From the NCBI GenBank assembly GCA_965208165.1, contig OZ242323.1, positions 1,364,078-1,428,077 of the forward strand: DNA of 64,000 bases, read 5' to 3'. Under the pieces are notes generated by a model. That model saw only the letters and a list, made by a program, of their open reading frames with translations. It was not told the DNA's origin and made no database searches. This document shows positions 4,778-60,600 of this stretch, one piece after another. Both the position numbers and the translations under genes were made by a program. This stretch comes from Vicinamibacterales bacterium. Its GTDB lineage: Bacteria; Acidobacteriota; Vicinamibacteria; Vicinamibacterales; UBA8438. How positions within the stretch are numbered: position 1 is the first letter of the stretch; each line of letters begins with the position of its first letter.

Positions 4778-5791
4778 TCAGGGCTGGCGATCGTTCCCGA
4801 TGCGCGCGATCGCGGTCGTCGCCGCCAGGCCGGCAAGCATCAGGGCCAGCGCGGCGCCGACCTGGCCGGCGGAAGGGGCGAAGCGCGCGAGCGGCCAATC
4901 GGCCGGGTCGATGCCGGGGAGGGACGCCTCGGTGACGACCTGCCCCCCGACGATCGACCCCGGGGGCGGCTCGACCGGTTGCTGGAAGGGCCAGAGCCCG
5001 GCCACCGCGCCGAGCAGGAGCCCGAGCAGGGCGCCGAGCGTCGCCTGACGGTAGCGGTCGAGCAGCCAGCGCAGCAGGTTGGAGACGCCGACGATGCCGG
5101 CGGCAACACCGAGCCCGACCGGCAGCAGGAGCGCCGAGGCGTCGAGCAGCAGCCCGATGTCCACGTCGAGCAGCCCGGCCCTCAGCGTGTCGACGGCGCC
5201 GAGAATCGTCTCGTACTGGCCGAGCAGCAGCAGCAGGTAGCCGCCGCTGACGCCGGGCAGGATCATCGCCGAGGCGCCGGCCAGGCCCGACAGGAAGAGC
5301 AGGGGCCCGCTCGCCTCGCCGCCCGCGCTTCCGGCGCCGAGGCCGAGCTGCATGAGCAGCATCAGGAGGGCGGCGCCGACCGCGGCGGCGTAGACGGCCG
5401 GGGTGGCGGGTCGGGCGAGCCGCCACACGAGGGGCACGCCGCCGAGGGTGAGGCCGATGAACAGGCTGTACATGGACCAGCGCTGCTCGATCACGAGGCT
5501 GCGCATGGGTCCCGCGAGGAGCAGGATGGCCAGGGCCGCCGCCCCGCCGACGGCGCCGAGCATCACGAGGGTGCGCCGGTCGAACCGGAACGTGGTGACG
5601 TCGGCGATCGCGGCGATGAACGCGGGGTAGACGCCGGCCGCGAGCAGCATGGTGCCGCCGCTGATGCCGGGGACGAGATTGGCGAGGCCCATGAGGGCTC
5701 CGCCGATCGCACCGCGAATGGTGAGGGACGCGAGCGAGCCGGCGGCGGCCGGCTCCGCGGTGTCGGCGGTCATCGGAGGGCTGGCGGCCAT
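4778..5791 (-). CDS. polytopic membrane protein with internal duplication (two PG(I/V)SGG motifs); possibly DUF368-like
   Basis: Many TM helices; repeated VPGISGGTMLLAAG / LPGVSGGYLLLLLG motifs. The 5' extension in the track ORF runs through a tandem repeat and is unlikely to be coding. Family assignment is tentative. Confidence 0.65.
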   Translation of the reverse strand: MAASPPMTADTAEPAAAGSLASLTIRGAIGGALMGLANLVPGISGGTMLLAAGVYPAFIAAIADVTTFRFDRRTLVMLGAVGGAAALAILLLAGPMRSLVIEQRWSMYSLFIGLTLGGVPLVWRLARPATPAVYAAAVGAALLMLLMQLGLGAGSAGGEASGPLLFLSGLAGASAMILPGVSGGYLLLLLGQYETILGAVDTLRAGLLDVDIGLLLDASALLLPVGLGVAAGIVGVSNLLRWLLDRYRQATLGALLGLLLGAVAGLWPFQQPVEPPPGSIVGGQVVTEASLPGIDPADWPLARFAPSAGQVGAALALMLAGLAATTAIARIGNDRQP

Positions 5792-5924
5792 CAGGACGCC
5801 CGCGAGATCGGCGCGTGGCGCCGCCCCGCCGTGGCGTCGGCGGTCATCGGAGGGCTGGCGGCTGCTCCGGTCCGGCCGGCTCGTTGGTGCGGCGCGACAC
5901 CGGCGGCCGGTCCCTCGGGGACCG

Positions 5925-6136
5925 CGCCGCCGGGTCGAAGCGAGACGCCGCCGGGTCGAAGCGAGACGCCGCCGGGTCAAAGCGAGACGCCGCCGGGTCG
6001 AAGCGAGACGCCGCCGGGTCGCGAGAAGCCGGCCGGGTCAAAGCGAGACGCCGACCGGGTTGAAGCGAGACGCCGGCCGGGTCGAAGCGAGAAACCGGCC
6101 GGGTCGAAGCGAGAAGCCGGCCGAGTCGGAGCAGAG
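5925..6136. repeat. tandem repeat, 21-bp unit x about 10 (GCCGGGTCGAAGCGAGACGCC)
   Basis: Head-to-tail copies that degenerate toward the 3' side; intergenic. Confidence 0.85.
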
Positions 6137-6143
6137 GCGGCCG

Positions 6144-7151
6144 CTACTGCTGCGATTCCTCCTCGGCCGCGGCCCTGTCGTCCGCCCGCGCCCCGGACAG
6201 GATGCCCTCCATCGAGTAGTTCCCCTCGTGGCAGGCGTACTCGAACAACGGCGTGTCGGTCCGCTGCATGGGCATCGACGCCGTCCAGGGGACCGCCCAG
6301 GTGTCGAGGTCGTTCACCGTGAACGTGTACTCGAGGGTGTCGTCGTCCAGCCGGGTGAACCGCTCCACCAGGGTGAAGCTGTCGCTCGACGCCACGCCGG
6401 AGCCCCCCGAGGTCAGCGGGATCCACTGGCGCTGGTCGTTGAAGTTCGCCGACTCGATGACCAGCGTGTCGCCCTCCCAGTAGCCGCGCGAGTCGCCCGT
6501 CCACAGGCGGATGCCGTCGTCGAGGGCGGGGCGTCCGTCGAGGGGCACGATGCGCGAGGTGTGCACCATCTCGGTGTGGATGACCACGTGGTCGGGGGTC
6601 TGGAAGAGCTGCATGTTCTGGTTGTAGGCGAGCGGCGTGATGGGGGGGCCGGCGTTGAACCCCACGATGCACCGGTCGGACGTGTTGCGGTCGGTGTAGG
6701 TGTCGGCGGGGTGCTCGGCCATGTGCGCCCGCCGCGCCTCGGCGCGCTCGGCGCCGACCTCGGACAGCTCGGGGAACCGGCCGTTCGGAGGATCGGTGAT
6801 GAGCGACGTGCGCCGCGTCTCGATGGGCCGGGTGCCCCGGTCCATCCAGAAGTTGTTGTAGGCGCCGACGTTGCCGCCAGCCTCGGTCCTCTGCGCCTCG
6901 CGCTCCCAGAGCTCGATGTCGCGCTCCACGGCCTCCCGCTCGAGGGTCGCGGCCTCCTCCGGCGTATAGAACGCCTGGTCGCCCAGGTCTTCCGGCCGCT
7001 CCAGCGGGGTGATGGTGCGGAAGTCCCAGATGCCCTGCAGATCCGGCGCCCCCCACGGGGTCCGGGGCGCGTCCTGGGCCGCCGCCGGGGCCGCGGTCAG
7101 CCCCGCGATGGCGATCACGGCGAGCGCCGCGACGAGAGAACGATTGGTCAT
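6144..7151 (-). CDS. hypothetical secreted protein
   Basis: Signal peptide MTNRSLVAALAVIAIAGLTAAPAAAQ; long ORF in the correct-strand context; no recognised domain. Confidence 0.6.
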   Translation of the reverse strand: MTNRSLVAALAVIAIAGLTAAPAAAQDAPRTPWGAPDLQGIWDFRTITPLERPEDLGDQAFYTPEEAATLEREAVERDIELWEREAQRTEAGGNVGAYNNFWMDRGTRPIETRRTSLITDPPNGRFPELSEVGAERAEARRAHMAEHPADTYTDRNTSDRCIVGFNAGPPITPLAYNQNMQLFQTPDHVVIHTEMVHTSRIVPLDGRPALDDGIRLWTGDSRGYWEGDTLVIESANFNDQRQWIPLTSGGSGVASSDSFTLVERFTRLDDDTLEYTFTVNDLDTWAVPWTASMPMQRTDTPLFEYACHEGNYSMEGILSGARADDRAAAEEESQQ

Positions 7152-7405
7152 TGCATCCACCTCCTGGTGTCCCGGTCGTCTTTCCGTGTCCTGCCAATCA
7201 TCGATCCGGAGGGTGGTCGCGCGCAAGGACGGATCGGGCCGATCCTCGACACGGCGGTGTCCGCCGCCGGCGCACCACTGCCGACGGTACGGCCGCCCGG
7301 GACTCGGAGAGCCCGAGTCCGTGGCTGACCCCCCGCCGCATCATTCGATCTCCCTCACGTTCCCCGAGCCGGACGGGCGTGCAATGGCGGCGCGCGGCCG
7401 TATCC

Positions 7406-7781
7406 CTACTGGTCCTTGAAGTAGTGGTCCGTGTGGTCCAGCCAGTCCTGCCGCGGGGGGCTGAAGATGTCGACGTCGAGCGTCTCTTCGAGGGCCTCGG
7501 CCTTGTGCGGGACGTTCGACGGCAGGCGCAGGACCTCGCCCTCGGCGACGTCGAAGACCTGCGAGAGGTCGTCGCCCACCCAGAACCGGAGCTTGCCCTT
7601 GAGGATGTAGGCGAGCTGCTCGTTGTGGTGCGAGCTCGGGCACGATGGCGCCCTTCTCGAGGTAGACGTGGGCCACCATAGTGCTCGCGCCGGTCACGAT
7701 CCGGCGCTCGATGCGGTTGGTGACCCGCTCCCTGGGCATGTCGTTCCATGCGAACTTGGCGACGTCGGTCGGGTTGGCCAT
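7406..7781 (-). pseudogene. cupin-domain protein with +1 frameshift (pseudogene or sequencing error)
   Basis: N-terminus MANPTDVAKFAWNDMPRERVTNRIERRIVTGASTMVAHVYLEKGAIVP, then the cupin continues in another frame (SHHNEQLAYILKGKLRFWVGDDLSQVFDVAEGEVLRLPSNVPHKAEALEETLDVDIFSPP..DQ*) from about 7636. Total length is not a multiple of 3. Confidence 0.55.
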
Positions 7782-7934
7782 GGAGTCCAGTGTACGCGAG
7801 CTCGCGTCCGGGGAACCGTCGTCCTGGGGCGATTGGCGGAGTTGACACCCCGGGGGGCAGCGCCGATCATGGCGGCGAAACCGTCTTCCGCGCCGAGTGC
7901 GGGCCGCGCCGCAGCCCGGCGAACAGGAGCCGCG

Positions 7935-9734
7935 ATGCAGATGCAGTTTCGTGCTTCACGATGTGTTTCGGGGATCGCGCTCGCGGCCCTGACGCTGGCG
8001 TCGCCGCCCGGCAGCGCGTCGGCCCAGTCCGCGAACGAGTTCGTGCCGGTCACCGACGCGATGCTCCACGATCCGGCCCCCGAGGACTGGCTGACGTGGC
8101 GTCGCACCCTCGACGGGTGGGGCTACAGCCCGCTGGACCAGATCGACCGCGGCAGCGTGGGCCGGCTCCGCATGGTGTGGTCGCGCGGGCTCGCGACGGG
8201 GCGGCAGGAGGGCACGCCGCTCGCCTACCGGGGCGTCCTCTACATGCCGCAGTCGAGCGACGTCATCGAGGCGATCGACGCGGTGACCGGCGACCTGATC
8301 TGGCAGCACCGCCGCAACCTGCCCGACGACGTCTACGACTTCGTCGGCGGCAACGCCCGCAACAACCGCAACATCGCCATCTTCGACCGCTTCATCGTCA
8401 ACACCAGCGACGACGACTACTTCTTCGGGCTCGATGTCGAGACCGGGGAGATCGCGTGGGAGACGCAGATCTTCGACTACCAGGAGACGCCGGCCGGGCA
8501 CAGCTCGGGCCCCATCATCGCCGACGGCCGGGCCATCTCCGGCCGGAGCTGCCGTCCCCAGGGCGGTCCCGAGTCGTGCGTCATCGTGGCCCACGACGCG
8601 CGGACCGGCGAGGAGCTGTGGCGTCGGCGCACGGTGCCGGCCCCGGGCGAGCCGGGCGACGAGACGTGGGGCGACGTGCCCTACGAGGAGCGGGTGCACG
8701 TGGGCACGTGGATGCCGGCGAGCTACGACCCCGAGCTGCGGCTCATCTACCAGGGGACGTCGGTCACGTCGCCGGCCCCGAAGTTCATGCTGGGCGGGGT
8801 CGAGAACACGCACCTTTACCACAACTCGACGCTGGCCATCGACGTCGAGACCGGCGAGATCCGTTGGTACTACCAGCACCTGAACGACCACTGGGACCTC
8901 GACCACCCCTTCGAGCGTATCCTCGTCGACACCGCGGTGGCCCCCGACCCGTCCGAGGTGAGCTGGATCAACCCGCGCATCCAGCCCGGCGAGACGCGGC
9001 GGGTAGTGACCGGCATTCCCGGCAAGACCGGCGTCGTCTACACCCTCGACCGCGAGACCGGCGAGTTCCTGTGGGCCACCCCCACCGTCGCCCAGAACGT
9101 CATCAGCGGCATCGACGGGGCGACGGGCGCGGTGACCGAGAACGCGGAGGTGGTGTTCACCGCGGTAGGACAGCAGGTCTTCGCCTGCCCGACGTGGAAC
9201 GGCGGCAAGGACTGGGAGGCGGGCGCCTACAGCCCCCTCACCAACACCATGTACATGCCGCTGCGCAACACCTGCGCGCGCATGCTCGCGACGACCACTT
9301 TCCCCGACGACACCCCGGCCGCGCGCACGGAGAGCCGCTCGCGCACCTACGCCATCGCCTACCGCCACCAGCTCGCGCCGGGCAACGAGAACGCGGGCAC
9401 GGTGCGCGCGATCTCGGCCGAGACCGGCGAGACCCTGTGGCTCCACGAGCAGCGCGCGGCGACCATGTCGATGGTGGCGACGGGCGGGGGGCTGGTCTTC
9501 GGCGGCGACATCGCGGGGCGGTTCCGCGCCTTCGACCAGGAGACCGGCGAGGTGCTGTGGGAGATCAGCCTCGGCTCGCCGGTGAGCGGCTTCCCGATCA
9601 CCTATGCCGTCGACGGCCGGCAGTACCTCGCGGTGGGCACCGGAGCCGGGGGGACGGCGTCGCACTTCAGCGCCCTGACCCCGGAGATCCGGCCCGCCTC
9701 GGGCAATACCCTCTACGTGTTCGCTCTGCCTTGA
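7935..9734 (+). CDS. PQQ-dependent dehydrogenase, methanol/ethanol (quinoprotein ADH) family, secreted
   Basis: Signal peptide; DWLTWRRTLDGWGYSPLDQI; eight-bladed propeller W motifs throughout; AGGAG RBS before MQMQF. Confidence 0.9.
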   Translation: MQMQFRASRCVSGIALAALTLASPPGSASAQSANEFVPVTDAMLHDPAPEDWLTWRRTLDGWGYSPLDQIDRGSVGRLRMVWSRGLATGRQEGTPLAYRGVLYMPQSSDVIEAIDAVTGDLIWQHRRNLPDDVYDFVGGNARNNRNIAIFDRFIVNTSDDDYFFGLDVETGEIAWETQIFDYQETPAGHSSGPIIADGRAISGRSCRPQGGPESCVIVAHDARTGEELWRRRTVPAPGEPGDETWGDVPYEERVHVGTWMPASYDPELRLIYQGTSVTSPAPKFMLGGVENTHLYHNSTLAIDVETGEIRWYYQHLNDHWDLDHPFERILVDTAVAPDPSEVSWINPRIQPGETRRVVTGIPGKTGVVYTLDRETGEFLWATPTVAQNVISGIDGATGAVTENAEVVFTAVGQQVFACPTWNGGKDWEAGAYSPLTNTMYMPLRNTCARMLATTTFPDDTPAARTESRSRTYAIAYRHQLAPGNENAGTVRAISAETGETLWLHEQRAATMSMVATGGGLVFGGDIAGRFRAFDQETGEVLWEISLGSPVSGFPITYAVDGRQYLAVGTGAGGTASHFSALTPEIRPASGNTLYVFALP

Positions 9735-10088
9735 CACCCGCGGCTATTCCGGGGGGCGTCCGAAGCGGCGCGCCCGGCCCGTAGCCGGCGTGCCCGAGGG
9801 CGGCCGCGGGTCGGCATTCGCAAGGTCGACGACCCCGTCGTCACCCCGGGCGACCTCGTCATGGCAGCGCTCTTGCCCTACCTCGCTGCGACGAGCGTCG
9901 GAGCTTCGCCGTAGTCGACGCCGTCGACAGCTCAGGAAGCCGCCGGGACTGCGATGGCGGGATTCGGGAGCCTGGGTCCGGCCGGCAATTCCAGGAGCAG
10001 TGCGTGAACCCGCGTTTCCACGCGCGGGAGGACCTCGCGGGGCTTCGTCCCGGCGCCGCCGCGTGATAACTTTGGCGGGCAGGTCTGG

Positions 10089-11463: not shown

Positions 11464-11653
11464 GGCGTGTCGCTTCGGGTTCCGTCCCCTGCGCGGAGGG
11501 ACGGCAGATTGGTCATGGTGCCTCGCGGCCAACGATGACAAACGGTCCTGGACATTCCGGCGGTTTCGCGGGGGACGGGGCGGGTGTGCGCTGATCCCCG
11601 GCCCCACCGCTCGCGTGGCGGAGCGATCGGTCGTCCGTGTGGTCCCGATTGGA

Positions 11654-11771
11654 GCTAGGAGTCTGCGCCGCAGGAAATTTTCGCCCCAACATGAAGTGGT
11701 TAATTCCAGTGCCAACCACAACATGCAGTAGCCGATCGGGCCCAAGACCGTTCCACGGCGCAGACTCCTAG
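11654..11771. repeat. 118-bp AT-rich element bounded by perfect 16-bp inverted repeats CTAGGAGTCTGCGCCG
   Basis: The IRs sit at 11654..11669 and 11756..11771; the interior is about 45% GC in a 70% GC genome. The element abuts the MITE-like copy A. Confidence 0.5.
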
Positions 11772-11879
11772 TGTCCCGCCACCGTGGTTCGAGGAACAAT
11801 CCTGTGCGGCACTACTTTAGTCTTGCAGGCAGTTACCGCGATCCAGAGCTTTCGCGAAACTTCACGGCCCCGACACTAG
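11768..11879 (+). mobile_element. MITE-like 112-bp element, copy A (TIR CTAGTGTC...GACACTAG)
   Basis: 8-bp perfect terminal inverted repeat. About 80% identical over its full length to 60489..60600, and in reverse to 60079..60185. Confidence 0.55.
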
Positions 11880-12460
11880 AAGATGGCGATCGGGTTCACC
11901 GGCGACCCCGTGCCGCCCGGCACCCGTAGCGGGGCCACCACCAGCAGGAACTCCCAGCGGTTGAGCCGGGCCGCGGTCTCGGCCGCCGCGTCGAGGTCGA
12001 TGTTGTCGAGCAGGTTCATCCCGCGCGCGACGATGGCGAAGCGGTGGATGGGGTTGACGCGCAGCCCCGGCACGCTGTCGGGCGCCTCGTGCACCGAGTC
12101 GGCCCCGAGCAGGGCGATGTCGCGCTCGGCCAGGAACGGGATGACCGAGGCGTCCCACCCCGACATCTCCCGCGTCGGCCCCACCGCCTCGCGGTAGGCC
12201 CAGCGGCCGGTGCGCAGCAGCAGCGCGTCGCCCGGCCCCAGCCGCACGCCGGCATACTCTTCCCACGCCTCGATGTCCTCGCGGTACAGCTTCGTGCCCG
12301 GCTCGAGGTACGGCACGCCCTTCAGCCGGGGCATGTCGACGAGCACCCCACGCGTCACCAGGCCGTCCCTCATCTGGGTGGTGTCCATCAGCGAGGGGTG
12401 CGGCTCTTTTTCATCGGCGATCGAGGGGTCCATGGGCTTCTGCGAGGAGCATGGCAAGAC

Positions 12461-14080
12461 CTACTTGATCCGTCGAAGGCGGGGTGAGGGTGGTGGGGGC
12501 GGCTCGGCGACGGGCGGTACTATCCCGTCGGCGTAGCGCTGGGCGTGGTTCCGTTCGTACTCGCGCGCTTCGTGGAAGGTCCAGTACGCATCGAAGTCGC
12601 CGCTGGCGCGCAGCGCCCGGAGCTTCAACACCGCCTCGGCCCCGACCAGGCGCCACCGGGCGCCGGTCAATTCCATCCGGTCGCGGACGAGGTGCCGGCA
12701 CGCCCCTTCGACAACGCCGGTGGCGATGGGATAGCCCGCCGCGAGGTAGCGGTCGTAGTGCAGATACGGTGCGTACTTCAGCAGGTAGTCCGCGCACGTA
12801 TCGACCGGCTTGCGGGTGTCGGGCGACAAGCCGGCGACGGTCGCCGCACGCCGCATCGACGACGCCACCTGGCGGGCCTTGCCCTCGAGAATGTCCCGCA
12901 CCCGCGTCCACGCCCAACACGCCAGCTCGGGGCTCCCCTCGCGATGGAATACGCGCGCCGCCTTCCAGACGTACTCGACCACGTGGATGATGTCCAGGAC
13001 CACCGTGACCTCCACCCCGAATTCTGCGGCGCCCGCTTCCACCAGGTCGAGCTGCGTCTCGGCCCCGTCGACGAGCACCACCCAGCGCTTGACGCGCTTC
13101 GGGTCGTGGCGCTCCGCTTCCAGCATCGCCTCGACGATCACCTCCCCGGGCTCCCGTTCGAGGCTCGCCCAGACCCGTTTCGCCACCGGGCGGGGCCGCA
13201 CCGCCGGGGGCGCGGCCTTCTTGCCCTTGCCCTTCTTGGTCTTGTCCCCCGGCTGTCGGGGCATCAAGCTCTGCAGGAACTCCTCCGCACTCCGCACGAA
13301 CGGCGCGACCGTGTAGACGGCGGCCACCGTCGCCATCCGCTTCGAGTGCTTCTTCTCCCCCGGCTTGAGGCGATTGAACGGGGAGAGCTGCTCCCGTTGC
13401 CGCCGACGCCGCTCGGCCTCCTTGCGCGTCGCCTCGCGCAGGTCCTCGCGATGCAGCACCACCCCCTTGCCGTCGAAGGTGAGCACGACAACCGACTCCT
13501 CCGGGGCCGGCTCGCCCGTCGCCGCACGGCGGGCTTCGTAGAACGCGTCGAAGTCCACGGCCGCGCGAGCCGCCAACTGCTCCGCCTGACGCTTCGGCAC
13601 CTCCGCGCCGGTACTCCGGGACAGATCGAACAACGCTTCGTCGAAAGACCGCGAGGCCGCCGCCTCCGCCACCCGCCGACGCACCTCCAGCGAGTAGCGC
13701 TCCACCGGCAGATTGAGCGACGCATCGAGCGGATGGAGACTATCGTGACCGGGGCGCGCATAGCCCACGCGACCGACATCCACCGTCCCGAAGACCGTCT
13801 CCACCGCGCGTTTGTGCACGCGCCGTTCCCGGCGCTCGACACCATCAGACCCCGCGACCGGACCCGCCGCCTCCCCAGGACTGCGTTGGTCGAGGTGACC
13901 TTGCAGCAGCTTCTGCATCAGCTCCTGGCCCCGCCGGTGCAGCTCCCGTTCGAGATCGCTCTCACTCATCTGCCGGGCCTCACGCGAAGAGAGGTAGGCT
14001 TTGGCCTCCGCAAAGGCCTCGTCCGCCGCCGCATACGGCGCCGGTGCGGATGCCGCGGCGGGGTGGGGAACAACTCGCAC
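12461..14080 (-). CDS. ISKra4-family transposase
   Basis: 539 aa; C-terminal GACRHLVRDRMELTGARWRLVGAEAVLKLRALRASGDFDAYWTFHEAREYERNH is characteristic of ISKra4-like transposases. Confidence 0.8.
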   Translation of the reverse strand: MRVVPHPAAASAPAPYAAADEAFAEAKAYLSSREARQMSESDLERELHRRGQELMQKLLQGHLDQRSPGEAAGPVAGSDGVERRERRVHKRAVETVFGTVDVGRVGYARPGHDSLHPLDASLNLPVERYSLEVRRRVAEAAASRSFDEALFDLSRSTGAEVPKRQAEQLAARAAVDFDAFYEARRAATGEPAPEESVVVLTFDGKGVVLHREDLREATRKEAERRRRQREQLSPFNRLKPGEKKHSKRMATVAAVYTVAPFVRSAEEFLQSLMPRQPGDKTKKGKGKKAAPPAVRPRPVAKRVWASLEREPGEVIVEAMLEAERHDPKRVKRWVVLVDGAETQLDLVEAGAAEFGVEVTVVLDIIHVVEYVWKAARVFHREGSPELACWAWTRVRDILEGKARQVASSMRRAATVAGLSPDTRKPVDTCADYLLKYAPYLHYDRYLAAGYPIATGVVEGACRHLVRDRMELTGARWRLVGAEAVLKLRALRASGDFDAYWTFHEAREYERNHAQRYADGIVPPVAEPPPPPSPRLRRIK

Positions 14081-14083
14081 GGC

Positions 14084-15001
14084 TCAACCCTCCCGAAGCC
14101 GCCGCTTCGCATCCCGGACCAAAGGATAGACCAGAACCGTCTTGGGCGCCTCGCCGACACGGCGGCCGTACCGGTCCATCCGCCCTCGACCGGCCGTGGC
14201 GCCCAACGCCACCCAGTTGGCGGCGCGATACGAACCGCCGTGGTGCCGGCTCGGGTCCACCAGCGTCTCCACGAGCCAGGGCTCGAGGCCGTAGCGGCGC
14301 GGCCAGTCGACCATCAAGTGCCCGAGCCCGCGCGACAGGACTGCGCTGGCCAGGTTCCTCACCCCGACCCACGGCAGCAGCAGGAAGCGGCTGTTGTTGA
14401 CCACGTGCTGGAGATTCCGCGCCCGAGTCGCGTCGTCCCAGCCGACCCAGCCATCCCGCGCCGCCATCCGCCACGCCGGGCTGGAGAACTGCAGGCAGCC
14501 GACCACCACCCGCTGAGGCCTCGCCGCGAACACCAGATAGCGCAGGTGGGCGCCGAAGGGGACCGTGTGCCCGAGGTAGTGGTAGCGGCCCACGAGCTCC
14601 CGGAACAGCAGGCGCTCGGCCGGCTCGCGTACCAGCTCGACATCCAGCGGCTCGACGTCGCGCACGCTGCCGACGAGCGGGCAACCCGGCTCTCCCGCCG
14701 CCGTCCGGGGCACGCGGGTGACCGAGCCGGGGGCGCGGCCCAGGCGCTTGTCCGGCAGCGCCACCGCACCCTCCGCGTCGAGCCGCTCCAGGAACTCGCG
14801 GCACTCGCGCGCCTTCAGCCTCCCGTTCGGGCGCCGCCACCGCAACAGCTCGCACACCGTGCGCGCCAGCTCCATCCGGCTCAAGCCCGGACAGTCCCGC
14901 ACGACCTCGCGGATCAGCGTCATCTCTCGCCCGCTGAAGGTGCGTCCCGAGAATCTCGTCGTCGCAGCCGCCATCGCAGGGGCTTTCCTTCCCCACGACA
15001 C
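14084..15001 (-). CDS. IS passenger protein (DUF4338-like)
   Basis: 305 aa; ends 4 nt before the transposase start; lies inside the IS inverted repeats; ...LVGRYHYLGHTVPFGAHLRYLVF...NLQHVVNNSRFLLLPWV. Family call from memory. Confidence 0.6.
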   Translation of the reverse strand: MSWGRKAPAMAAATTRFSGRTFSGREMTLIREVVRDCPGLSRMELARTVCELLRWRRPNGRLKARECREFLERLDAEGAVALPDKRLGRAPGSVTRVPRTAAGEPGCPLVGSVRDVEPLDVELVREPAERLLFRELVGRYHYLGHTVPFGAHLRYLVFAARPQRVVVGCLQFSSPAWRMAARDGWVGWDDATRARNLQHVVNNSRFLLLPWVGVRNLASAVLSRGLGHLMVDWPRRYGLEPWLVETLVDPSRHHGGSYRAANWVALGATAGRGRMDRYGRRVGEAPKTVLVYPLVRDAKRRLREG

Positions 15002-15748
15002 CGTACCAAAACGCCGCGCGAATGTCCAGAGGGAGCGCCGGACGGGAAGACCGGAGCGCGCCGGCGTCGTGATCAGGCCGGGCGAAGGCCCGAAAGCGGC
15101 GGGTGGAGACGCTGGCCGGAAGCTGTCCCCGGCCAGAGCGCACTAGCGAGCGCGGGCCCCGTGGGCATAACTCCTTATGAATGAGTGAGATAACATTCTA
15201 CGCAAAAGAGCCGCACCCATCAGCGAGCAGCCGTCCTCGGTGACCACGTCGCGGAAGTCGAGGCCGTTGTAGAGCCTGTCCTTGTAGAAGACGTGGCACA
15301 GCCCGTCGAGGTGGGAGTAGCTCACGCCGTGGAAATAGACCTCGACCCGGTCGCCCGAGTTCTGCCCCTCGGGATTGACGTTCATCTGCAGCACATAGGG
15401 CTCGGCCGCGTCGGGCGCTTCCTCGGTGAGGAAGTCGTGGGACAGCGACACGGTGGTGCCGGTCCGAACGAGGGCCGCCGCCTCGCGGCGCTTCTCGTCC
15501 GTCATCAGGTTGGCGGCGCCGATCTGGTCGTCGTCGCCCCACCGGCCCCAGTTCGACAGCTCGTCCATCCACCGGTCGAACTGCGCGATGCTGACCGGCT
15601 CGCGCTCGGGCGACTGGGCCGGTGCGTCGGCGGTCGACCCGACCAGGCCGAGTCCGGTGATGCCCGCCACGAGTATCGATGTTCTCCTCATGTTGCTCTC
15701 CCTGCGCCCGGTTCGGTGTTGGCCTGCTGGCGTCAGTGCGGTGAGATG

Positions 15749-16045: not shown

Positions 16046-16096
16046 CGCTCGACCTCCTCGGCCGATCCTGCGGTCGCCGGTCCCAAGGTGCGGTCC

Positions 16097-16470
16097 GGTT
16101 CACGCCAGTCCAAGCACCTCCTCCATCACCAGTCGCGGCCCGCGGTCGTGGTCCCGCACGACGTTGCGCGTCCGGTTTCACGCGAGTCCAAGCACGTCTT
16201 CCATGACCAGCCGCGGACCGCGGTCGTGGTCCCGTACGACGTTGCGCGTCCGGTCTCACGCGAGTCCAAGCACCTCCATGACCAGCCGCGGACCGCGGTC
16301 GTGGTCCCGTACGACGTTGCGCGTCCGGTTTCACGCGAGTCCAAGCACCTCCTCCATGACCAGCCGCGGACCGCGGTCGTGGTCCCGTACGACGTTGCGC
16401 GTCCGGTCTCACGCGAGTCCAAGCACCTCCTCCATGACCAGCCGCGGACCGCGGTCGTGGTCCCGCACGA
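16097..16470. repeat. tandem repeat: 75-bp unit x5 duplicating the 3' end plus stop codon of the carboxylesterase gene
   Basis: Unit GGT(Y)TCACGCGAGTCCAAGCACCTCCTCCATGACCAGCCGCGGACCGCGGTCGTGGTCCCGTACGACGTTGCGCGTCC; one copy is 72 bp. Each copy encodes ...RDHDRGPRLVMEEVLGLA* on the minus strand. The last copy is the genuine gene end. Confidence 0.85.
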
Positions 16471-38006: not shown

Positions 38007-39089
38007 TCAGAACATCGCGATCGGGTTCGCGGGGCTGCCGGTGCCGCGCGCCACGTTGAGCGGCAGCAGCATGAACATGAACTCGTGCCGGCCCTCCTCG
38101 GCGCAGGCGTCGGCGATGGGCTCGAGCCGCGCGTTGTCGAGCAGGGCGACGCCGAAGTTGAAGAGCACCCCGTGGACGGGCCAGGGCAGCCCGTCCGCGC
38201 CCATGCGGGCGTCCATGAGATCCCAGCCCAGCAGCGCCACGTCGTGGTCGCGGATGAACTCGGCGCAGCTCGGGTGCAGGCCGGGGCGCCCCTGGCTGCC
38301 GTCGTCGCCGCTCTGCATGTACGACGCCCAGCCGCTGTGGACGAGGAGGGCGTCGCCCGGCTCGACGGTCACCCCCTGCGCGGCCGCGATCGCCTCGAGC
38401 TCGTCGCCGCGCACGGGACGGTCCGCCGTGACGTGGGGCTCGCCGCGGTGGCGGGGCACGTCGATCAGGACTCCCTTGGTGATGACGCCGCGGTTCCAGT
38501 GGGTGATGTCGCCGAAGTGGGCGCCCTGGGTGGTGATCTCGTCGTCGGGGTCGCGGCCCTGCCACATTCCGTCCTCGTCCCAGATGTGGCAGAGGGCGTC
38601 GATGTGGGTCACGGTCGAGCCGTGGTAGATGAAGCCCAGGTAGTCCATGACGTAGCCGCCGTTCCCGCCGAGCGAGTCCTTGGTGATGAAGTGCTGCGGC
38701 GGCTCGAAGACGCGGCTGAGCGAGACGGTGCGGCCGGTGCGGACGAGGCCGGCGGCGGCGGCGCGCTTCTCGGCGGTGATGAGGTTGATGGCGCCGACCT
38801 GGTCGTCGTCGCCCCAGCGGCCCCAGTTGCGCCGGTCGCGGTACATCGCCGCGTAGTCGGTGTCGGCGGCCTGTCCGGCCCGGACGGCGGGAGAGGCGGG
38901 CGCCGCCGCGGCCGATGCCGCCGCCCGGTTCCGGGCGGCCTGACGGGCGAGGAGCTCCGGGGGAGAGAAGGTCCCGGCGCCGGTGCGGGGGGCGCCCGCC
39001 GGCGAGGCCAGGGCCGAGGCGGGCCGGGCCAGCGCGGCGCTGCCCACGGCCGCCGCGTGCATCAGGAATCGTCGTCGTGATGAAGCCAT
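38007..39089 (-). CDS. cyclase-family protein (kynurenine-formamidase-like), Tat-secreted; intact paralog of the IS-disrupted gene
   Basis: Tat motif SRRRFLMHAAAVG; YHGSTVTHIDALCH (HxGTHxDxPxH-type); GGGAGGA RBS. Confidence 0.85.
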   Translation of the reverse strand: MASSRRRFLMHAAAVGSAALARPASALASPAGAPRTGAGTFSPPELLARQAARNRAAASAAAAPASPAVRAGQAADTDYAAMYRDRRNWGRWGDDDQVGAINLITAEKRAAAAGLVRTGRTVSLSRVFEPPQHFITKDSLGGNGGYVMDYLGFIYHGSTVTHIDALCHIWDEDGMWQGRDPDDEITTQGAHFGDITHWNRGVITKGVLIDVPRHRGEPHVTADRPVRGDELEAIAAAQGVTVEPGDALLVHSGWASYMQSGDDGSQGRPGLHPSCAEFIRDHDVALLGWDLMDARMGADGLPWPVHGVLFNFGVALLDNARLEPIADACAEEGRHEFMFMLLPLNVARGTGSPANPIAMF

Positions 39090-60078: not shown

Positions 60079-60185
60079 CTATTGTCCCGGCCGTGAAGTT
60101 CGCGAAAGCGCCGGATCGCTGTAAATAACCGTAAACACAGAACAACTGCCGCGTAGAATTGTTCCGCGAACCACCGTTCGACACC
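60079..60185 (-). mobile_element. MITE-like element copy B (reverse orientation, one end degenerate)
   Basis: Reverse complement aligns with copies A and C (..GGCCGTGAAGTTCGCGAAAGC..GGATCGC.. / ..TTGTTCCGCGAACCACC..). Confidence 0.5.
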
Positions 60186-60488: not shown

Positions 60489-60600
60489 CTAGTGTCCCGC
60501 AACTGTGGTTCGTGGAACAGTCTTGAGCGGCATTACTTCTGTTTTTGCAGTCACTTACGGATACCAAAACCGCTCACGAACTTCACGGCCGGGACACTGG
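60489..60600 (+). mobile_element. MITE-like 112-bp element copy C (TIR CTAGTGTCCCG / CGGGACACTGG)
   Basis: Same length and orientation as copy A; 10 of 11 bp terminal inverted repeat. Confidence 0.55.

Follow-up and report, generated by a model that had tools for sequence, protein, structure and literature searches.

Druantia was described in 2018, and the function of the DUF4338 domain has been listed as 'unknown' since then; DruA is an uncharacterised component of Druantia type I. Transposition of the insertion sequences (ISs) IS10 and IS50 is gated by host Dam methylation, and we know of no IS that encodes its own DNA-modifying enzyme for the control of transposition. Here we describe an IS at positions 12396-15218 of a 64,000-nucleotide stretch of DNA from a Vicinamibacterales bacterium (GenBank assembly GCA_965208165.1, contig OZ242323.1, forward-strand positions 1,364,078 to 1,428,077), hereafter called the window. 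The element carries a transposase gene and an accessory gene, whose product belongs to the PF14236 (DUF4338, 'DruA') family. Genes of this family regularly adjoin, or are fused with, transposase genes of many unrelated families. The accessory protein is probably a specific relative of the phage Mu protein Mom, and this module, rather than the insertion, is the point of interest.

The transposase assigns the window IS to the ISKra4 family, whose enzymes are Mutator-like DDE transposases of the p-MULT4 group (PMC3942029). In the table of Guerillot et al. 2014, ISKra4-group elements have direct repeats (DR) of 9, and the ends of ISAcce1 and ISAcas3 finish ...GCACCC and ...CGCCC, which read GGGTGC... 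and GGGCG... from the tip (PMC3942029). A few members with extra open reading frames (ORFs) of unknown function had already been noted in this group, and some members insert 13-17 bp upstream of sigma-A promoters, a preference that does not define the family (PMC3942029). The window transposase matches the NCBI curated ISKra4 model NF033572 with 341 bits (cut-off 205) over profile positions 2-421 of 422. The next-best families, ISH6 and ISLre2, reach approximately 41 bits, and Pfam holds no model for this transposase family. Most relatives of the transposase have an ATG where the window ORF has its GTG (14080). Together with the 9-bp target-site duplication (TSD) and the GGGTG tips, this match bears out the family assignment made in a preliminary description of the locus. 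Judged by these sequence features, the window IS is a new member of the ISKra4 family and the insertion itself is routine. The parts of the element are as follows.

12387 to 12395, no strand: left copy of the TSD, ATCAGCGAG, corresponding to a single orthologous 9-mer at the empty site on contig L085.
12396 to 12410, plus strand: transposase-distal terminal inverted repeat (IR), GGGTGCGGCTCTTTT, which is the right end when the IS genes are read 5' to 3'.
12461 to 14080, minus strand: ISKra4-family DDE transposase ORF, 539 amino acids from the GTG at 14080, matching NF033572.
14081 to 14086, minus strand: ORF junction TGA-GCC, with the two ORFs in frame and one stop codon plus one codon apart.
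14084 to 14974, minus strand: accessory gene (PF14236, 'DruA'), 296 amino acids from the ATG at 14974; the mechanical ORF reaches the GTG at 15001.
14975 to 15203, minus strand: 5' non-coding leader of the IS, approximately 230 bp, upstream of the accessory gene.
15204 to 15218, minus strand: accessory-gene-proximal terminal IR, the reverse complement of GGGTGCGGCTCTTTT.
15219 to 15227, no strand: right copy of the TSD, ATCAGCGAG.

The accessory protein scores 169 bits against PF14236 (gathering score 27), in agreement with the earlier recognition of a DUF4338-like second gene. Because nearly all of its homologues are 296 amino acids long, the ATG at 14974, which yields a protein of this length, is most likely the start, rather than the GTG at 15001 that gives the 305 residues originally reported. 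A scan of one genome per species yielded 265 encoded relatives. Over its entire 2,823 bp, the unit can be aligned at 84-92% nucleotide identity with many chromosomal sites in metagenome-assembled genomes (MAGs) of Vicinamibacterales, and these MAGs often hold 5-10 copies of the IS per genome. Among 27 full-length copies for which both flanks were available, 26 are bounded by perfect 9-bp TSDs that are all mutually different and lie outside the same termini, with the accessory gene inside the IRs. Every one of those copies retains a full-length accessory ORF, and purifying selection acts on it as on the transposase: its median pairwise ratio of nonsynonymous to synonymous substitution rates (dN/dS) is 0.26, which is indistinguishable from the transposase value of 0.23. 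Its neighbours in the window are the ISKra4 transposase and the two halves of a cyclase gene, and no Dru genes are found in 27 other copies either. The accessory gene is thus very probably an integral part of this IS lineage and not cargo, and the label 'passenger' given to it in the preliminary description does not hold against these observations and the ties of its relatives to other transposase families described below. Because the gene moves with the IS, stays intact and is as constrained as the transposase, it appears to be needed for the propagation of the element itself.

Translation of 12461-14974 on the minus strand meets stops only at codons 297 and 838, and this arrangement with a single in-frame TGA is kept in 21 of 21 close copies (the window and 20 others). 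Nine more distant ISKra4-linked loci comprise four that share the in-frame TGA, four with the ORFs in other frames and one that is decayed. Since the in-frame TGA is limited to four of these nine loci, translational coupling is the safe reading of the junction, and for the same reason read-through or frameshifting was dropped as a conserved feature of the family. Read-through to a fusion of approximately 837 amino acids is possible.

An exhaustive search of 1.84 billion cluster representatives yielded 7,901 relatives of the accessory protein at E ≤ 1e-3, corresponding to approximately 7,900 clusters at 50% identity. Among the best 150 relatives, 21 are 590-883 amino acids long, and all ten of the long representatives examined are fusions to complete transposases. 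The partners in these ten are ISAzo13 (560 bits), IS630 (199 bits), IS4_1 (five proteins), a Tn5-like IS4_3 transposase (425 bits) with its own Tnp_DNA_bind domain and IS66 transposases (two proteins, with the module C-terminal). In protein P0164, the module lies N-terminal of a Tn5-type DNA-binding domain. A tblastn search of plasmids returned two records, both Thiodictyon plasmids. One of these relatives is fused N-terminally to an ISAs1 transposase, and the other is located upstream of a Tn5-like IS4 transposase inside CTGACTATTA... IRs, in an element that has a 9-bp TSD (GGCCCTGGG) and splits a DUF2235 gene. On Thiodictyon plasmid NZ_CP020372 (L082, locus 4876-9787), the Tn5-like DUF4338 IS is itself split by an integrase and IS91-family transposase pair.

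Metagenomic contigs provided 80 further loci with relatives at 38-65% identity, about ten of which come from contigs that end too near the gene to judge. A transposase of the panel is directly adjacent at 43 of the 80 loci, nearly always on the same strand, and belongs to IS66 (20 loci), ISKra4 (13), IS4_1 (6), the Tn5-like group (2), ISAs1 (1) or ISAzo13 (1). An NCBIfam scan of 20 further neighbours added four cases: two of IS701 (one adjacent and one fused, both just below the cut-off), one of ISKra4 and one of IS66. The same scan gave weak IS1380-, ISH3- and IS1-like matches and two large serine recombinases. In total, relatives are linked, as neighbours or as fusions, to at least seven other transposase families, the families named overall being ISKra4, IS4 (two subgroups), IS66, ISAzo13, IS630, ISAs1 and IS701. 

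On metagenome contigs L096 and L151, a same-strand large serine recombinase (XisF/Ccr-like, weak matches) follows the DruA-like gene with no DDE transposase, so the module may not be restricted to DDE elements. Viral contigs nearly lack the module, with 5 loci among 2.9 million. One 42.7-kb contig (IMG/VR UViG_3300048503_000080) has two inverted DruA-like copies (L166 and L167), approximately 4-5 kb from each contig end, which could represent a composite element or an assembly effect.

DUF4338 has been called a GNAT domain in a passing remark by Aravind's group (PMC10853773). The AlphaFold2 model of the accessory protein (pLDDT 73, pTM 0.69) starts with three helices and a small beta-hairpin that form an N-terminal module (approximately residues 1-75), continues with a disordered linker and ends in an alpha/beta core that resembles the Mom-like GNAT fold (approximately residues 100-296). 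The N-terminal helical, winged-helix-like module is conserved. Mom ranks at the top of the Foldseek results (E 1.8e-6), and two methods place it (PDB entry 8bv8) nearest among solved structures. When 24,736 Pfam families were scanned, Mom (PF25680) was the sole non-DruA family to match six of eight DruA-like proteins in the same region, with scores of 24.7 bits for P0108, a 71% identical relative, and 28.3 bits for P0257, which is above the gathering score of 27.1.

Mom takes glycine from Gly-tRNA(Gly) and attaches it to adenine N6 in double-stranded DNA, so that N6-carbamoylmethyl-adenine is formed; its active-site residues are H58, Y59, R111, S124, D149, R151 and Y159 (Silva et al. 2026, PMC13219725). 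Six of these seven (H58, Y59, S124, D149, R151 and Y159) fall on the conserved residues H132, Y133, S210, D240, R243 and Y249 of the accessory protein in an hhalign alignment that is itself marginal. Residues H132, R196, S210 and E236 are invariant in 47 diverse family members at 34-58% identity, and the same four are kept in 13 proteins that are associated with six transposase families (the alignment of the IS701 fusion L133 is out of register, with a long leader, and was not used).

Several observations weigh against kinship with Mom or against a role tied to transposition. The AlphaFold2 model is of moderate quality at the pLDDT given above, and its input alignment consisted of sequences at ≥69% identity. 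The window protein itself scores 14.9 bits against PF25680 (E 0.021), under the cut-off of 27.1; the hhalign match to Mom has an E value of 0.005 and a probability of 7%; and an hmmsearch of PDB sequences with the family profile did not retrieve Mom. That search gave nothing significant, and its match of the N-terminal module to the winged-helix protein eS25 was non-significant. The essential R111 of Mom falls in a gap of the hhalign alignment and lacks a clear counterpart, with the invariant R196 as a candidate equivalent. Mom also needs its helix-turn-helix (HTH)-like insertion (approximately 175-209) in order to be active. Most of this insertion aligns with a gap in the DruA-like family, in which the N-terminal helical module may take over its role. 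The authors of the Mom study themselves point out that GNAT substrates are not predictable from the fold (PMC13219725). Lastly, housekeeping genes alone surround the relatives at three metagenome loci (L114, L137 and L152), and from this minority it follows that the family is not exclusively IS-borne. With these points taken into account, we still consider it probable that the accessory protein is specifically kin to Mom, and we infer that it is a catalytically competent Mom-like GNAT acyl- or aminoacyl-transferase. DNA is the substrate suggested by its nearest relative, Mom, by its helical module, which looks like a DNA-binding domain, and by its link to transposases that are themselves bound to DNA; we make this assignment tentatively.

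Other roles for the accessory protein are consistent with parts of these data. The gene could be ordinary cargo, such as a Druantia relic or a small-molecule acetyltransferase, that serves as a host or defence gene benefiting the cell and has no relation to transposition. Extra ORFs of unknown function do occur in some ISKra4-group elements (PMC3942029), the domain owes its name to a defence protein, and the few relatives with housekeeping neighbours only would fit this explanation as well. Cargo would not be expected to recur with at least seven unrelated transposase families, often within one polypeptide, or to keep its place immediately ahead of the transposase across a 3-nucleotide in-frame gap under constraint equal to that of the transposase. 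Druantia partner genes are missing from the vicinity, and the PADLOC DruA match is partial (28 bits, 50 residues), all of which makes the cargo explanation very unlikely. A purely architectural role, in which the N-terminal winged helix picks IS ends or targets and the GNAT core is an inert scaffold or dimerisation unit, agrees with the conservation of the helical module, with its place ahead of the Tn5-type DNA-binding domain in P0164, and with the usual N-terminal position of transposase DNA-binding domains, which the fused module shares. The equivalents of the Mom catalytic set (H, S, D/E, R and Y) are nonetheless invariant or nearly so across members at 34-58% identity and in all fusion contexts. 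Since such invariance is not expected of a dead scaffold, and given that the module is C-terminal or downstream in IS66 elements and that the fused transposases retain DNA-binding domains of their own, we regard this role as unlikely.

A catalytic protein might instead act on something other than DNA, either on aminoacyl-tRNA in the manner of the GNAT toxins TacT, AtaT and ItaT, with addiction or growth arrest as the outcome, or by acylating the transposase or a host protein. The GNAT fold leaves room for such activities because GNAT substrates are hard to predict, and FemX and TacT, with which Mom has been compared structurally, handle aminoacyl-tRNA just as Mom does (PMC13219725). The element has no antitoxin-like small ORF, though, and the nearest neighbour of the accessory protein by both structure and Pfam is the DNA-modifying Mom rather than the TacT-type toxins. 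The winged-helix-like module and the tethering to DNA-bound transposases likewise favour DNA, and we therefore judge a non-DNA substrate improbable. Overall, an integral, Mom-like nucleic-acid-modifying accessory enzyme tethered to transposition is the explanation that we favour, with moderate confidence.

We propose that such an enzyme would act in the following manner. The accessory protein would be made together with the transposase, through translational coupling over the 3-nucleotide gap or through occasional read-through of the in-frame TGA, and read-through would yield the same type of fusion that other IS families encode outright. The protein would then be recruited to the IS or to the target DNA, where it would covalently modify bases. 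The benefit to the element is speculative and is framed here by analogy: the modification might protect the element, or the intermediates of its transposition, against nucleases and defence systems of the host, or it might serve as a self-encoded epigenetic mark that controls end recognition, comparable to the control of IS10 and IS50 by Dam. More broadly, Mom-like and possibly aminoacyl-tRNA-dependent DNA base modifiers could be a widespread IS accessory module that at least seven DDE families, and occasionally serine recombinases, would have acquired independently and with which elements mark DNA during transposition for defence evasion or epigenetic control. DruA would then be a relative that supplies the DNA-marking step of Druantia. 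This general scheme is possible, and we put it forward as a conjecture that may well prove wrong.

The relationship to Druantia itself is more distant. The PADLOC DruA models PDLC00001 and PDLC00002 (407 and 675 positions) give 28 and 23 bits, respectively, over residues 140-192 only. Because these matches are short and weak, and because no Dru genes lie nearby, the accessory protein represents a paralogous branch, neither orthologous to DruA of Druantia type I nor a component of Druantia.

The insertion that brought the module to this locus lies within a cyclase gene. The two parts of that gene flank the element in the following manner.

11876 to 12395, minus strand: C-terminal part of the split PF04199 cyclase / kynurenine-formamidase-like gene.
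15219 to 15691, minus strand: N-terminal part of the split cyclase gene, with its start ATG at 15691.

The IS is 2,823 bp long and has a G+C content of 70%, compared with 71% for the window. Its IRs are identical at 15 of 15 positions, start with GGGTGCGG, occur within the window only at these two sites and lose similarity past base 15; the IS is present in one copy in the window. In-silico excision of 12396-15227 yields an uninterrupted ORF of 984 nucleotides and 327 amino acids with a PF04199 domain. Thus, the intact IRs, the 9-bp TSD and the in-frame rejoining of the cyclase halves recorded in the preliminary description are all confirmed. Its statement that the rejoined protein aligns 'residue for residue' with the paralog at 38007-39089 (minus strand) is too strong: identity is 38% over 284 amino acids with 14 gap positions, none of which falls across the junction. 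Firmer support comes from other sequences: the rejoined cyclase is collinear over its full length with uninterrupted orthologues of 327-329 amino acids at 87-92% identity, and it has a 97% identical partial call. This 97% identical cyclase is encoded on a syntenic contig, L085, which has the order esterase, cyclase and beta-eliminating lyase at approximately 95% nucleotide identity. L085 provides the empty site that the earlier description had suggested seeking, with the flanks abutting around a single 9-mer, ATCACGGAG, and no IS. Because a related population has this empty site, the TSD was made by the present insertion. The locus therefore contains a complete two-gene IS that transposed into a cyclase gene and duplicated a 9-bp target.

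A 99.2% identical copy of the IS with a different TSD is present in a MAG labelled Gemmatimonadetes (L003, JAPOOQ010000031.1). The empty site in a related population, the intactness of both ORFs and this near-identical copy argue that the insertion is clean and recent, as had been claimed, and we regard the identity of the IS and the recency of its insertion as nearly certain. The window IS is probably active. The genes that flank it in the window are closest to Acidobacteriota/Vicinamibacterales assemblies, unlike the Gemmatimonadetes label of the MAG, and the L003 copy reflects either a very recent inter-phylum transfer or a problem of binning or labelling.

The leader at 14975-15203 presumably holds the promoter. 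A sigma-70 consensus scan of the leader gave no match, and promoter and terminator consensus scans of the element gave nothing. The leader is the most variable part of the element among copies, and many alignments begin at element position 88-152. Promoter-targeted insertion was considered and is not supported by the 27 target sites of this IS (the window and 26 other loci), which have no promoter-proximal pattern. The 27 TSDs are A/T-enriched, with 47% G+C versus 65% in the flanks. Position 2 is A or T in 24 of the 27 and position 8 in 20 of the 27, a weakly palindromic preference.

Several IS copies in Vicinamibacterales chromosomes (L001/L035, L020, L024, L057, L059 and L080) are split by 2-3-kb insertions, and the insert in L001 contains three tyrosine-recombinase genes in a row. 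Mobile elements nested in one another appear to be abundant in these Vicinamibacterales genomes. Near the IS in the window, the interval between the lyase and cyclase genes contains a 410-bp intergenic stretch (11469-11878) with 63% G+C, compared with 71% for the window, where L085 has a spacer of approximately 35 bp instead. It includes a perfect 16-bp inverted repeat, CTAGGAGTCTGCGCCG...CGGCGCAGACTCCTAG (about 11655-11775), and sequences 76% identical to its last ~110 bp lie at 60489-60598 (plus strand) and 60080-60177 (minus strand). The stretch could be a short intergenic element, repeated or mobile; it has no Rfam match, and neither has any other part of the window. On the other side of the IS, five tandem copies of a 78-bp unit (93% matches) occupy 16089-16470, just 5' of a carboxylesterase gene, and L085 has one copy of this unit.

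The accessory module appears to be undescribed. The literature that could be searched, which does not include ISfinder and most subscription journals, contains no account of a regular association of DUF4338 with transposases and no account of a resemblance of DUF4338 to Mom, and its mentions of DUF4338 do not concern IS elements. Publications on 'DruA' deal mostly with Druantia and give nothing on the DruA protein itself, and the CoCoNuT paper makes no mention of it. The preliminary description was literally correct that the second gene has no established function, and the hypothesis of a Mom-like enzyme is now available for it. The size of the family and its link to very different transposase families argue for a general function linked to transposition. 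Kinship with Mom, whose chemistry was solved only in 2026, would give DUF4338 a testable chemistry, namely DNA adenine acylation. If this hypothesis is correct, transposons carry their own DNA-modifying enzyme, and DruA of Druantia type I gains a mechanistic hypothesis.

Compared with known systems, the window IS resembles the ISKra4 family in its match to the curated model, in its 9-bp TSD and in its GGGTG tips, which are like those of ISAcce1 and ISAcas3. It differs in having two genes, the transposase being preceded in the same frame by a conserved DruA/DUF4338-like gene, and unlike the members that target promoter-proximal sites, it lies within a coding sequence. The encoding of a second protein in the IS and its co-expression with the transposase recall IstB of IS21, TnpA/TnpB of IS66 and TnpB of IS605, none of which is a GNAT or Mom-like enzyme. 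With Druantia type I DruA, the accessory protein has the DUF4338 domain in common, but it is IS-borne, only about 296 amino acids long and encoded without DruB-E neighbours. With Mom, it shares the motifs HY, N..S (with the catalytic Ser), (E/Q)(T/S)F.D.. and G..Y.A.N(W/F)..G, and both proteins are encoded on transposable DNA, given that Mu is a transposing phage. It differs from Mom in that sequence identity is approximately 20-25%, in that the HTH-like insertion and Com-type regulation are absent, and in that it has an N-terminal winged-helix-like domain and belongs to a family nearly absent from viral contigs.

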